From Bifidobacteriaceae bacterium (GTDB lineage Bacteria; Actinomycetota; Actinomycetes; Actinomycetales; WQXJ01): a stretch of 64,000 nt of DNA. Positions within the stretch are counted from its first letter, which is position 1. Every line of letters begins with the position of its first letter. Made by a program: the position numbers and the translations under genes. The stretch covers positions 6,021 through 70,020 of the forward strand of contig JAISSX010000059.1 of NCBI GenBank assembly GCA_031272885.1. The letters are read 5' to 3'. Positions 39,318-53,699 of the stretch are shown here, one piece after another. Under the pieces are notes generated by a model, which made no database searches, was not told the DNA's origin, and worked only from the letters and a program-made list of their open reading frames with translations.

Positions 39318-39335
39318 CGAGAGATCGATTACTCT
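39318..39335. promoter_or_regulatory. LacI-type operator (site 1) upstream of the LacI gene
   Basis: cGAGAGATCGATTACTCt. Same CG-centred 18-mer as the sites at 50062, 50139, 53607 and 53682. Confidence 0.6.
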
Positions 39336-39389
39336 TGTTTCTGTAACCCGTTCCCACCCGTTCTTTGCGCCCAAGATTCGGAGGCCCCG

Positions 39390-40403
39390 GTGGCAGCAAG
39401 AGGCAGTACCCGCCGGGTGACCATTCACGATGTCGCGGCCGCCGCCGGCGTTTCATCCGCCACTGCGTCGCGGGTAGTCAACGGCGTGCCCACCGTGGAC
39501 CCGGAACTGGCCCGCCGCGTCTACGAAGCCATCGAAGCCTCCGGCTACGTGCTCAACCCGACCGCCCGGGCGCTGCGCCGCAGCGTCACCAGTTCGTGGC
39601 GGGTCATCATCCCTGACCTGCAGAATCCCTTCTTCATCGCCGTGGTGTCATCCCTGGAGGAGGCCGCCGGGCGGCACGGCTATTCGATCGTCTTGTCCAA
39701 CTCCGATGAGCGCTTGGACCGCGAACGCGAAGCGATTGAGGCGGCCGTGGCCGAACGAGTGGCGGGCGTGGTATTGGCGGTGGTGTCCGAGATCAAGTCA
39801 GATATTTCCCCGCTCACCCGGGCCGGCATTCCGGTGGTGCTGGTTGACCGGCGCACCAAGGCGTTCGATGGCGATGCCGTGTTTGTGGACAACCGCCTGA
39901 CCGGCGTTATTGCGGCGCAACACTTGATTCAGCGGGGCCGGCGGCGGCTGGCCTGCATTGCCGGCCGGGTTGACGTGACCGCCACGGAAGACCGGCTGTC
40001 CGGCTTCCGCGAAACCCTGGAGGCGGCCGGCATCGGGCTGCCGGACGAATACGTCTGCCGGTCTGACCGGCGCGTGGAGTCCGGTCAAGAGTCGCTCCAA
40101 TCACTCATGTCGCTGCCTCAGCCGCCGGACGCCCTGTATGTCACCAACGAACCGCTGACGGCTGGCGTGTTCCAGGCCGCCCAACAGTTGGGCATCGCCA
40201 TTCCGGAAGACTTGGCGCTGGTGGGCACCGATGACAACGCCTGGATGCGCATGGTGCGCCCCCAGGTCACCACGGTGCTGCAGCCGGCCAAGCGGATCGG
40301 CTGGCTGGCCGGCGAAATGATCGCCGCCCGCGCCAGTGGCGGCACGGTGGCCGGCGGCCTGGTCACCCTGATGCCCACCCTCGAAGCCCGCGAATCCTCC
40401 TGA
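39390..40403 (+). CDS. LacI-family transcriptional regulator
   Basis: GTG start with GGAGG 6 nt upstream. VTIHDVAAAAGVSSATASRVVNG HTH plus a periplasmic-binding-protein-like sugar-binding fold. Confidence 0.9.
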   Translation: MAARGSTRRVTIHDVAAAAGVSSATASRVVNGVPTVDPELARRVYEAIEASGYVLNPTARALRRSVTSSWRVIIPDLQNPFFIAVVSSLEEAAGRHGYSIVLSNSDERLDREREAIEAAVAERVAGVVLAVVSEIKSDISPLTRAGIPVVLVDRRTKAFDGDAVFVDNRLTGVIAAQHLIQRGRRRLACIAGRVDVTATEDRLSGFRETLEAAGIGLPDEYVCRSDRRVESGQESLQSLMSLPQPPDALYVTNEPLTAGVFQAAQQLGIAIPEDLALVGTDDNAWMRMVRPQVTTVLQPAKRIGWLAGEMIAARASGGTVAGGLVTLMPTLEARESS

Positions 40404-40427
40404 CCCCCCGGTCGCCATCGGCCACCC

Positions 40428-40546
40428 ACCCTCTCGCGAGAGTACGGTTATGTAGGCCGGGCAAGATCACGCAACGCTGTGACCTGCGGAAACGTGCTTC
40501 ACTCTGAGCGAAACGCCTACACAACCGTACTTTCGCGAGGGGGGAT
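40428..40546. mobile_element. MITE-like palindromic element, family A, copy 2 (core inverted relative to copy 1)
   Basis: ccctctcgcgagagtacggttatgtagg ... cctacacaaccgtactttcgcgagggggg. Lies between the convergent LacI gene and the 1171-aa gene. Confidence 0.75.
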
Positions 40547-40559
40547 GGGATGGGGGCGG

Positions 40560-53400: not shown

Positions 53401-53515
53401 GGGTGGGGGGCATAGTGGGGGCGGCCTCGGCCGCCGTGCCGGCTATCACCAGGCCGGCAAAGGCGAGCGCGGCGGCGCCCGTGAGGGCCATAGCCTTGCG
53501 CATGTGAGTCTTCAT
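50420..53515 (-). CDS. Secreted multidomain DUF4185 (GH183-like) enzyme: signal peptide, DUF4185, CBM-like beta-sandwich, FIVAR-like helical repeats, FG-GAP/VCBS repeats
   Basis: SP MKTHMRKAMALTGAAALAFAGLVIAGTAAEA. IGGTDLGILWDAGNGTVLAAFGDTFN, WRSSSLLFSNDHDLTDGMTW, LYGGFLHPWSL..YFALSDWAKYSTFL. Repeated DIDAATQALEDAIAAL-type helices. At least 5 repeats of GD(L/W)N(A/G)DG..D(L/I)LA....G.LW.Y.G.G.G.F. Confidence 0.75.
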   Translation of the reverse strand: MKTHMRKAMALTGAAALAFAGLVIAGTAAEAAPTMPPTRAIMAGKMTGREAVTPTNNNTYGNIGGTDLGILWDAGNGTVLAAFGDTFNTSYQTGNWRSSSLLFSNDHDLTDGMTWYKALMNSATQSKEIIPCKQATCATGENSAIPTGGIAVANPDNPSQYRNFVGYMSNTGFGAAGYWGIQYSGIYYSDDYGDTWAASTMRWLNPNSNKFDYQPFQMINFAQKPGDQYVYMFGTGPGRHTPVAVARATQRDFYNMDQSKFEYWITDRWVTTTEDPQAADNATPVMGDFTNHGVGELGIGYDQYSGLWLSVHQDNDLDIVLQTAPEPTGPWSEPYILVTTTDHPQLYGGFLHPWSLGNQPDKYFALSDWAKYSTFLMRFTINKDGSVTRPNLIADPNLERQGSTVGGAWSTDAVSGVDSAGNISPYNRAYSGWKSVWMRLDGSGGQTGTVSMWQQVTLKPNTDYALWCWVRMNDETATVVPDAHLGVREVGGGAVIAQTSFSETTEAQGYIRQYIEFNSGSLTTVEVFLGGELSLTNPWLNIDTFGLIEKDPPTLDKTALEAAIADGASRTVSDYTTSSVGTFPADLAAAKVEDADLFTTQDDIDAATQALEDAIAALVLHGDAGALTAVLDFIDAQNLTGTYTAASIAALQTKVTAGRTVAAAEADKTQAQIDQALTDVQTAFAALVALPPAVDKTVLQSLVNSVDKLAANSSMYTAASWVPVATALATAKQVLAGSPTQAQVTAQINAIHQAVAGLKPAPASTTGQGTTPSTPTPSGPTARTYASFTLSPDLNGDGRGEILAIHGTSGELFGFEASASGGLTKQTTLVSGLLNQQAYGPGDWDGDGKADVVSVDAAGYMWLYSGTGKGSVGSKVEIGHGWSPFRVIPAGDLNADGANDLLAIDQSGKLWLYAGNGHGGFKGQPKQVGQGWVGLDLYAAGDLNADGHNDILAVLPDGTLWAYAGRGNGTFSVPKQVGRGWGTFELAAGADLNGDGRADIVGRNNATGDLYYYQGNGGGSFQAAKQIATGW

Positions 53516-53606
53516 GGATGCTTGTCTCCTACGTAGCTGGACTGCGTCGTTGCATGGTCTATGTGGGGCGGTGCGGTTGAGGGATGCCGCTGTCCGTACC
53601 GCATTT

Positions 53607-53624
53607 TGAGAGATCGATTTCCCA
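53607..53624. promoter_or_regulatory. LacI-type operator (site 4)
   Basis: TGAGAGATCGATTTCCCA, centred 100 nt upstream of the 53515 start. Confidence 0.55.
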
Positions 53625-53681
53625 ACTGGCCGAGCGTATGCCGTGGTAGTTGATGGTTGTTTCTTGTTACCGGCGGCCTTG

Positions 53682-53699
53682 CCAGTAATCGATTGCTCA
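53682..53699. promoter_or_regulatory. LacI-type operator (site 5)
   Basis: CCAGTAATCGATTGCTCA, 75 bp from site 4. Confidence 0.55.

Follow-up and report, generated by a model that had tools for sequence, protein, structure and literature searches.

The window analysed here, the whole 64-kb stretch of DNA from a Bifidobacteriaceae MAG, holds a locus with two GH183 endo-D-arabinanases, an ABC importer, a GH172 enzyme and a DUF6259 protein. The two DUF4185 genes of the initial annotation are confirmed, on the minus strand at 48723–50030 and, encoding a 1031-aa protein, at 50420–53515. The former, gene 1 of the operon (48723–49994, minus strand; Pfam E 2e-96), encodes a GH183 (DUF4185) endo-alpha-D-arabinanase lipoprotein with the lipobox LVAGC, a homologue of EndoMA1 (PDB 8HHV, E 8.5e-75), and probably starts at GTG 49994, with the ribosome-binding site AAAGGAGG ahead of it. 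On the same strand, domain searches identify an ABC solute-binding lipoprotein (47161–48630) and two ABC permease genes (46073–47020 and 45219–46073), joined by a GH172 (DUF2961) enzyme without signal peptide (44072–45163; Pfam E 2e-87), for which family exo-alpha-D-arabinofuranosidase activity has been reported (PMC10509167). The operon's final gene (40560–44075, minus strand), whose start overlaps the GH172 stop by 4 nt, encodes a DUF6259 protein of 1171 aa. Its C-terminal module models as a GH129/GH36/GH101-like glycosidase fold, a match given by profile and structure-based comparison only, sequence searches of PDB and NCBIfam having come back empty; our search found no relevant literature on DUF6259.

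The second endo-D-arabinanase gene, GH183L (50420–53515, minus strand), is monocistronic and encodes a secreted 1031-aa GH183 protein with FIVAR and FG-GAP domains. Directly 3' of its stop lie two strong hairpins (50246–50403, minus strand; RNA fold -111 kcal/mol, z -3.3), formed by a CCCCTGG-rich stem and a perfect 16-bp inverted repeat CGAGAGGTCAATTCCG, which are probably terminators isolating GH183L from the operon promoter. The GH183 gene has no close relative, the best matches reaching 50% identity in species-representative genomes and 51% in the protein database. GH183, GH172 and an ABC importer are clustered as in actinobacterial D-arabinan utilisation loci of the Shimokawa 2023 type; a GH116 exo-beta-D-arabinofuranosidase is absent from the locus, and the DUF6259 protein stands in its place.

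On the plus strand at 39390–40403, the assignment of a LacI-family gene holds: the product, 337 aa when read from GTG 39390 and 328 aa in the public annotation, combines the Pfam LacI HTH and Peripla_BP domains, with PF00356 at the N-terminus (E 1.1e-11, residues 11–54) and a C-terminal effector/dimerisation domain matched by PF13377, PF00532 and PF13407. The regulator matches the structures of CcpA, RbsR and PurR over its full length, residues 9–336 aligning with residues 2–330 of CcpA, and its recognition helix GVSSATASRVVNG aligns with the CcpA and LacI counterparts. In LacI-family structures the hinge leucine sits at the central CpG of the operator; the hinge of this regulator, NPTARALR, keeps the conserved leucine, NPTARAL aligning with NAVARGL of CcpA and NRVAQQL of E. 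coli LacI. The alignment with E. coli LacI ends at LacI residue 320 with 8 regulator residues left over and shows no counterpart of the C-terminal tetramerisation helix, and the C-terminus of the regulator is level with that of dimeric CcpA. No named LacI-family equivalog (RbsR, CcpA, CytR, PurR, GalR and others) was reached, all 21 NCBIfam matches falling under their cut-offs; the highest-scoring equivalog was RbsR, with 203 bits where the cut-off is 531.

The five 18-bp palindromes previously quoted for this window are all present, letter for letter and in place: site 1 (CGAGAGATCGATTACTCT, 39318–39335), a predicted autoregulatory operator 5' of lacI; sites 2 (50062–50079) and 3 (50139–50156), designated O2 and O1 of the operon; and sites 4 (53607–53624) and 5 (53682–53699), O2 and O1 of the GH183L gene, none of them assigned a strand. 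The pair spacings of 77 and 75 bp are likewise correct when measured start to start, and the statement that the motif was seen nowhere else in intergenic DNA stands, nothing else in the 64 kb being similar. Allowing up to 3 mismatches, TGAGNNATCGATNNCTCA has 6 matches in the window where 1.21 are expected, and 0 of 100 shuffles reach 6; the sixth match, at 57264, is noise, with 3 mismatches, no central CG and 10 bits. With a matrix derived from the five sites, these reach 25–31 bits, the next best window position 10.0 and the maximum of shuffled sequence 21. A non-circular matrix, trained only on 93 AATCGATT-core sites from GH183 loci of other species, ranks the same sites as the top five of the 64 kb, at 15.9–24.7 bits versus 4.6 for the next. 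The bare ATCGAT hexamer occurs 11 times in the window, the 6 copies outside the five sites having unrelated flanks. The even 18-bp palindrome with central CG has the form of LacI-family operators (even palindromes of 16–22 bp with central CG), and central-CG even palindromes are recorded for 1173 of 1303 LacI-family TFs (PMC4052901).

These figures bear on the idea that the five sites are chance matches, or a small repeat or mobile element present in several copies. The paired half-site pattern does also match unrelated low-GC inverted-repeat elements: a metagenome scan with TGAGNNATCGATN{55,85}ATCGATNNCTCA returned 77 loci, 0 of them with GH183 or LacI homologues, and these loci, mostly one such element, were set aside as unrelated. 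Against this, all five window sites lie in promoter regions, the DNA between them is not repeated, and the motif is conserved over several actinobacterial families. The shuffle statistics and the independent cross-species matrix refute a chance or repeat origin, to which we assign practically no probability.

The upstream member of each pair, site 3 or 5, lies 2 nt past a TTGACA-N17/18-TAnnnT element and over the predicted transcription start. For the operon, TTGACA (-35, 50183–50188) and the hexamer TAGACT (-10, 50159–50164), both on the minus strand, give 10 of 12 consensus matches with an 18-nt spacer, and O1 spans about -4 to +14; for GH183L, TTGACA (-35, 53725–53730) and the weak hexamer TACCCT (-10, 53702–53707), on the same strand, are separated by 17 nt. 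Sites 2 and 4 lie in the leaders, ~76 bp downstream of O1, at about +74 to +91 and +72 to +89, respectively, where the starts are those predicted from consensus hexamers alone. Across the window and its relatives, 27 of 128 sites abut TTGACA-N16-18-TAnnnT, compared with 7 of 15200 random positions. The two window GH183 genes are old paralogues (45% identity), and their promoters align at -35, -10, O1 and O2 only, the intervening DNA being diverged and not repeated, which points to selection on the layout. LacI-family operators are expected in promoters or leaders, mostly 30–140 bp ahead of the start codon; the site centres here lie ~63 (site 1), 76 (site 2), 153 (site 3), 100 (site 4) and 175 bp (site 5) 5' of the start codons, and the two distant ones, sites 3 and 5, are those that abut -10 hexamers.

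As copies of one palindrome, O1 and O2 could also base-pair with each other in the mRNA leader; in the minimum-energy fold of each predicted leader the O1 half does pair with the O2 half, as would be expected if a long hairpin governed stability or translation. The folding energies of the leaders are nonetheless ordinary (z -0.25 and -0.81), no Rfam match is found in the window, many relatives have the second site upstream of the promoter or lack it, and site 1 is a single copy, all of which makes an RNA element extremely unlikely.

Site 1 lies 55 bp ahead of GTG 39390 and 82 bp ahead of the database-annotated start, GTG 39417, and a by-eye search around it found no convincing -35/-10 pair for lacI. 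It is the weakest match of the five and lies only 31 bp past a hipA-like gene, so that it might instead block read-through. Autoregulation at this site, as the initial annotation had proposed, is well supported, since a site 5' of the regulator gene recurs in relatives; a site comparable to site 1 precedes the gene of a 54%-identical orthologue (L083), whereas none is found 5' of the LacI gene in L082. Within the LacI family, autoregulation is known for 72% of members, and multiple sites per operon for about 20% (PMC4052901).

Comparison with related genomes, earlier put forward as a check, bears out a motif family shared by several actinobacterial families. The exact 18-mer pattern of the window has 0 matches in 80 related loci, and the relaxed core GNNATCGATNNC reveals a related motif there: the non-Mycobacteriales GH183 loci contain 93 copies of AATCGATT in 656 kb, those of Mycobacteriales 9 copies in 887 kb. 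A LacI homologue is present in 26 of 33 non-Mycobacteriales GH183 loci, every one of the 26 with at least two sites; the 46 Mycobacteriales loci have no LacI homologue and hold 6 sites in 887 kb. These site counts come from a matrix trained on the same loci, a circularity that affects neither the count of raw 8-mers nor the test on the window. The DNA-binding domains of the relatives are conserved (GVS-x-AT-x-SRV-x-NG, with the hinge N..AR.LR), and the motif tracks the LacI clade, reading TGAGTAATCGATTACTCA in the clade of 54–69% identity and nnnGAAATCGATTTCnnn in that of 33–42%. The promoter layout recurs as well: TGAGTAATCGATTACGCA abuts a TAGAAT -10 ahead of a DUF6259-SBP-permease-GH172 operon beside the 69%-identical orthologue (L082), CGAGTAATCGATTACTCA follows TTGACA-17-TACGGT ahead of SIS-PfkB-GH172-GH183-ABC-GH183 in L083, and TGAGTAAACGTTTACTCT comes immediately past TATCTT beside an orthologue of 57% identity (L085). 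In the PUL of Microbacterium cremeum (GH183 x5, GH172, LacI, kinase, GH116), 4 promoters carry one strong site each.

Such co-occurrence also weighs on a rival reading in which a gene elsewhere, say that of a global LacI-type carbon regulator, supplies the protein that binds the palindromes, with the adjacent LacI protein a bystander. LacI-family motifs resemble each other, our window statistics and scan cover 64 kb of the genome, and one close homologue (L086, 63% identity) has neither a site nor an arabinan gene within 10 kb. We still consider a distant regulator very unlikely, given the strict correlation between presence and absence of motif and LacI homologue over 79 loci, the sites flanking the LacI gene itself in most loci, and the change of motif along with LacI clade.

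The sites and their significance, the promoter hexamers beside them, the conservation of motif and layout and the co-occurrence of TF and motif lead us to posit that the five palindromes are, with high probability, operators of the adjacent LacI-family repressor, which would act as the local regulator of a D-arabinan regulon. The sites tie together lacI, the GH183-ABC-GH172-DUF6259 operon and the monocistronic 1031-aa GH183 gene, in agreement with the single regulon suggested at the outset, the gene functions being assigned by homology. In the scheme that we infer, a repressor dimer would, without inducer, occupy O1 of both sigma-70-type promoters; O1 covers the predicted transcription start, 2 nt past the -10, and we therefore propose that RNA polymerase would be excluded, through a block of its binding or of open complex formation. 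Repression by promoter occlusion is well supported. A second dimer on O2, ~76 bp downstream, may add repression, acting as a roadblock or through a higher local occupancy, and through site 1 the repressor would limit its own synthesis. Basal levels of the secreted endo-arabinanases would release D-arabinose or D-arabino-oligosaccharides, whose uptake would in turn release the repressor. The inducer is likely D-arabinose or a D-arabino-oligosaccharide, not the plant L-form, judging from the D-arabinan PUL of Microbacterium arabinogalactanolyticum, whose genes respond to D-arabinose and to mycobacterial cell-wall extract with >10-fold induction (Shimokawa et al. 2023, PMC10509167).

Some benefit from two operators is plausible, because paired sites recur in relatives. 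The initial annotation had gone further, reading cooperative binding or looping from a spacing of about seven helical turns; this part is not supported, for lack of a tetramerisation helix and in view of the variable, unphased spacings of relatives. At 10.5 bp per turn, 75 and 77 bp correspond to 7.14 and 7.33 turns (6.8 and 7.0 at 11 bp), and the 69–70 bp of other lineages to about 6.6. In relatives the two operators of a pair are 32 to 151 bp apart, and the 26 spacings show no helical phase preference (Rayleigh p 0.14 and 0.27), the pairs being non-independent and of differing architectures. The second operator lies downstream in the window, 144 bp upstream in L082, 69–70 bp upstream or 98–105 bp away in others, on the upstream side in Micromonosporaceae/Microbacteriaceae, and is absent in M. 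cremeum. A cooperative arrangement in which a tetramer, or a dimer of dimers, loops the ~76 bp at a spacing fixed near seven turns does have points in its favour: both window promoters keep 77 and 75 bp although the DNA between has diverged, paired sites are recurrent, a 69–70 bp pair is conserved in Leifsonia, Rhodoglobus, Rugosimonospora and Dactylosporangium, Leifsonia also has 75–79 bp pairs, and GalR, itself a dimer, loops two operators of gal with assistance from HU. Known cooperative LacI-family tandems, however, peak at 13, 22 and 32 bp (PMC4052901), far shorter than the ~76 bp here, and with a regulator that ends where CcpA ends we regard looping as possible but doubtful.

By mechanism an ordinary LacI-family switch, the repressor would here control a recently discovered pathway. 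D-arabinan is a sugar polymer of mycobacterial cell walls, and the enzymes that degrade it (GH183, GH172, GH116) have been known only since 2023; their importance is twofold, as tools for attacking the mycobacterial wall and as participants in its turnover. In the literature that we searched the pathway is inducible and its regulator is not named: Shimokawa et al. (PMC10509167) name no regulator or operator, no paper was found that connects a LacI regulator with the regulation of D-arabinan or DUF4185 genes, and nothing relevant was found on AATCGATT with LacI. Repressor, operator and promoter-operator module together offer a testable switch for D-arabinan loci and a candidate biosensor for D-arabinose or oligo-D-arabinofuranoside, and the PWM plus TF a search key for more pathway members in genomes, such as DUF6259, transporters and the SIS/PfkB or FucI/FGGY genes of D-arabinose catabolism. 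It is conceivable, if rather unlikely, that the motif marks a widespread, undescribed actinobacterial "D-arabinan regulon" by which non-mycolate actinobacteria sense and eat mycobacterial or corynebacterial walls. Were this so, regulon membership would flag new D-arabinan-active enzymes, with the cytoplasmic DUF6259 protein, of GH129/GH36/GH101-like fold and in GH116's place, as the main candidate, and the pairs at lineage-specific fixed distances (69–70, 75–79 bp) would reflect a GalR-like repressosome of dimeric repressors and a nucleoid protein.

Like the local sugar-catabolic LacI-family repressors catalogued by Ravcheev et al. 2014 (PMC4052901), the system described here combines an HTH and a periplasmic-binding-protein-fold effector domain with an 18-bp central-CG palindrome, and the regulator gene adjoins its target CAZyme/ABC operon. 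The closest solved structures are those of CcpA (1RZR, 3OQM; full-length alignment, E 1e-53), with which the regulator shares a dimer-type length and a conserved recognition helix and hinge; unlike it, CcpA is global, needs HPr-Ser-P and recognises cre sites, and the regulator scores 193 bits against the ccpA equivalog, far under the 442-bit cut-off. In E. coli, lac combines O1 at +11 with the auxiliary operators O2 and O3, and gal combines OE/OI with GalR plus HU. As there, the main operator lies over the start and the auxiliary one tens of bp off, within the transcribed region; unlike E. coli lac, the regulator of the window has no tetramerisation helix, and the pair spacings of relatives show no phase preference. 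The Bifidobacteriaceae regulators AbfR, AauR, BauR and AraQ serve L-arabinose and AOS (PMC5928203), whereas the target in the window is D-arabinan (GH183/GH172), not plant L-arabinan. A parallel in gene content, the M. arabinogalactanolyticum PUL, likewise pairs secreted GH183 endo-D-arabinanases with an ABC importer and a cytoplasmic GH172; the window locus differs in having DUF6259 in place of GH116 and no isomerase or kinase genes nearby, and the related PUL of the congeneric M. cremeum carries both the LacI homologue and the motif.

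The 18-bp palindrome lies at 39318-39335, 50062-50079, 50139-50156, 53607-53624 and 53682-53699 (sites 1-5), all five copies being found exactly where the initial annotation had placed them, with the 77- and 75-bp spacings that it gave for the two pairs, measured here from start to start. Its even form with a central CG is the norm of the LacI family (1173/1303 TFs; PMC4052901). Within the window (~66% GC), TGAGNNATCGATNNCTCA with at most three mismatches has six matches against 1.21 expected, a count attained by 0/100 shuffles; the sixth, at 57264, lacks the central CG and was rejected. 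A matrix built from the five sites scores them at 25-31 bits, compared with a maximum of 21 in shuffled sequence and only 10.0 at the next window position, bearing out the earlier remark that the motif was seen nowhere else in intergenic DNA. ATCGAT itself appears just 11 times, and the six hexamers outside the sites have unrelated flanks. When a matrix was trained solely on 93 foreign AATCGATT sites from GH183 (DUF4185) loci outside the Mycobacteriales, the same five sites took the first five ranks in the window, at 15.9-24.7 bits against 4.6 for the position that followed.

Four of these sites belong to two minus-strand promoters. The operon begins with the small GH183 gene (48723-49994) and continues with genes for a solute-binding protein (SBP), two permeases, a GH172/DUF2961 protein and a 1171-aa DUF6259 protein; upstream lies the separate GH183L gene (50420-53515), encoding a 1031-aa GH183 protein with FIVAR and FG-GAP domains. 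In the operon promoter, TTGACA (50188-50183) is followed after 18 nt by TAGACT (50164-50159), and in that of GH183L, TTGACA (53730-53725) is followed after 17 nt by TACCCT (53707-53702). Since 2 nt separate the -10 element from site 3 and site 5, respectively, we regard these as promoter-proximal operators (O1), spanning about -4 to +14 of the predicted transcripts, and sites 2 and 4, at about +72 to +91, as leader operators (O2). Alignment of the two regions is confined to -35, -10, O1 and O2, indicating that this layout was retained while the remaining DNA drifted; the two GH183 enzymes are just 45% identical. This restricted alignment, together with the shuffle and matrix statistics, excludes chance or a repeat element as the origin of the five sites. 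As had been proposed, the motif joins the GH183L gene and the operon in one predicted regulon. A paired half-site pattern was also seen in several metagenomes, in a ~109-bp inverted-repeat family (TGAGTAATCGATGAGTAA...TGGCCTATCGATTACTCA; 35-44% GC contigs, L087-L163) that is unrelated to the window motif and may be a MITE-like repeat.

Downstream of the GH183L stop codon are a perfect 16-bp inverted repeat, CGAGAGGTCAATTCCG (50336-50351/50388-50403, 36 nt apart), directly 3' of the stop, and a hairpin made of CCCCTGG repeats (50246-50317). Folded as RNA, 50246-50403 reaches -111 kcal/mol (z -3.3). These hairpins are probably terminators, which fits GH183L as its own transcription unit, while the perfect repeat could alternatively be a protein-binding site.

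Comparison with related genomes, as initially suggested, showed that a related palindrome and a LacI homologue recur together. Scanning species-representative genomes with the small GH183 as query yielded 80 loci, all at ≤50% identity. The 33 non-Mycobacteriales loci (among them Nonomuraea, Thermoactinospora, Hamadaea, Dactylosporangium, Catelliglobosispora, Jiangella, Leifsonia, Protaetiibacter and Rhodoglobus) share a palindrome with the core G-N-AATCGATT-N-C, intergenic, beside the LacI homologue and ahead of GH183, GH172 and binding-protein genes. The 8-mer AATCGATT occurs 93 times in 656 kb of these loci versus 9 times in 887 kb of Mycobacteriales loci. A LacI homologue is present in 26/33, with at least two sites in 26/26, and in 0/46 Mycobacteriales loci, which hold six sites in total. 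The DNA-binding domains of these homologues have a recognition helix and hinge in common. Closer orthologues carry the window's own motif version: AGAGTAATCGAGTTCTCA and TGAGTAATCGATTACGCA ahead of a DUF6259-SBP-permease-GH172 operon in L082 (regulator identity 69%); CGAGTAATCGATTACTCA ahead of SIS-PfkB-GH172-GH183-ABC-GH183 in L083/L084 (54%), with a weaker site ahead of the regulator gene; and TGAGTAAACGTTTACTCT ahead of SIS-PfkB in L085 (57%), with two more sites in a divergent region that a binding-protein gene shares. Sites of the AAACGATT type accompany the more distant homologues of a Pseudonocardiaceae MAG (FucI-like isomerase, FGGY kinase, GH172) and of Cutibacterium avidum (SIS-PfkB-MFS-RbsD). 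Because TF and motif co-occur and the motif changes alongside the regulator clade, binding of the palindromes by a regulator other than the adjacent LacI protein is unlikely. Sites adjoin a TTGACA-N16-18-TAnnnT promoter in 27/128 cases across window and relatives versus 7/15200 random positions, and a TTGACA-N16/17-TAnnnT promoter adjoins the operator in L082, L083 and L085 alike.

The position of O1 over the predicted transcript start argues for repression by promoter occlusion; O2 might be a roadblock, or might simply increase local occupancy. An RNA-level element is an unlikely alternative: the leaders are able to pair O1 with O2, but their folds are of no unusual stability and the window gave no Rfam match. 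Looping or cooperativity had been proposed from a spacing of about seven helical turns. At 10.5 bp per turn, 75 and 77 bp amount to 7.14 and 7.33 turns, and the regulator, whose alignment with dimeric CcpA runs over its full length and whose hinge leucine is conserved, has no counterpart of the E. coli LacI tetramerization helix when aligned to the E. coli protein. Auxiliary sites lie 144 bp upstream in L082, 69-70 bp upstream of a -35-overlapping operator in Leifsonia, Rhodoglobus, Rugosimonospora and Dactylosporangium, and at 98-105 bp in Nonomuraea and Hamadaea; Microbacterium cremeum has none. The 26 pair spacings of relatives, from pairs that are interdependent and vary in architecture, show no helical-phase preference, and the family's known cooperative tandems peak at 13, 22 and 32 bp (PMC4052901). 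Looping of the O1-O2 DNA is therefore an unsupported possibility. That pairs recur, with 69-70 bp kept across two orders and 75-77 bp in this genome, suggests that having two sites is useful. In GH183-SBP operons of Microbacteriaceae and Micromonosporaceae (L011, L018, L023, L025, L034), the operator lies over the -35 (cTTGACGAAACCGATTTCTTG...TACTGn), and the sequence between it and the second operator, constantly 69-70 bp upstream, is unrelated.

Autoregulation is usual in the LacI family (72% of members), and multiple sites are found in about 20% of its regulated operons (PMC4052901). The autoregulation proposed for site 1 is supported by relatives, in which sites ahead of the regulator gene (39390-40403, plus strand) are common, though L082 lacks such a site. 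Site 1 is the weakest match of the five, and a by-eye search for its promoter found none. The preceding HipA-like kinase gene (37788-39287, plus strand) stops 31 bp before site 1, and in the matching Logan contig L081 an HTH_31 (HipB-like) gene is immediately upstream of it.

On its minus strand, a second sugar locus (540-9400) encodes an SBP, a BNR-repeat protein and two permeases; its plus strand encodes two GH51 alpha-L-arabinofuranosidases. It contains no motif copies, and the homologous GH51 operon of L082, divergent from the regulator orthologue, likewise has no site. Between its SBP and GH51 genes (5329-6182, plus strand) are a small ORF and, from a by-eye reading of the translation, a possible acetyltransferase-like ORF; this pair and the HipA-like pair look like toxin-antitoxin modules. 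A giant ORF (56782-63999, plus strand; >2400 aa, continuing past the window end), with nine BACON repeats, a lectin-like domain, LRRs and a papain-like (Peptidase_C1) region, has as its predicted product a surface protein unusual for an actinobacterium.

The small GH183 shows clear homology to the crystallized endo-alpha-D-arabinanase EndoMA1 (8HHV, E 8.5e-75). Export signals are present in the SBP and in the two GH183 enzymes and absent from GH172 and DUF6259. The locus agrees in enzyme localization and import with the Microbacterium arabinogalactanolyticum model, in which endo-enzymes are secreted, oligosaccharides imported and exo-enzymes cytoplasmic (PMC10509167); we therefore take the polymer to be the D-arabinan found in mycobacterial and corynebacterial walls rather than the L-arabinan of plants. 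SIS-domain isomerase and PfkB kinase genes, or FucI-like isomerase and FGGY kinase genes, are also predicted to be under regulator orthologues (L083 11081-12660; L085 8005-9619; L166 6562-8159; L164 6819-9843), probably as D-arabinose catabolic steps; the window contains none. The DUF6259 gene is the last of the window operon (40560-44075, minus strand) and the first after the operators in L082 (11306-14935). Searches found neither literature on DUF6259 nor a sequence relative in the PDB. The high-confidence AlphaFold model of its C-terminal 767 residues (405-1171; pLDDT 92.7) has a (beta/alpha)8 barrel between two beta-sandwiches and is closest to GH129 (5OPQ, E 3e-24; 5WZR), then GH36 and GH101; the N-terminal ~400 residues form a concanavalin-like region, also found in giant proteins, with weak DUF1349 and GH43_C2-type matches.

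The polysaccharide utilization locus (PUL) of M. cremeum, with five GH183 genes, GH172, LacI, a kinase and GH116, resembles the characterized one, and four of its promoters have one strong site each. D-arabinose and mycobacterial cell-wall extract each induce PUL genes >10-fold in M. arabinogalactanolyticum, a member of the same genus (PMC10509167); neither that paper nor its supplements mention a regulator, our regulator reached no named equivalog, and our literature searches revealed neither a regulator nor an operator described for the D-arabinan loci of non-mycolate Actinobacteria. In contrast to Microbacterium PULs, which have a GH116 exo-beta-D-arabinofuranosidase, the window locus has DUF6259 in its place, making it a candidate new family of D-arabinan-active hydrolases acting on D-arabino-oligosaccharides. 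The circuit itself is of the standard LacI-family type, and what is new is that its targets are D-arabinan loci, in non-mycolate Actinobacteria.
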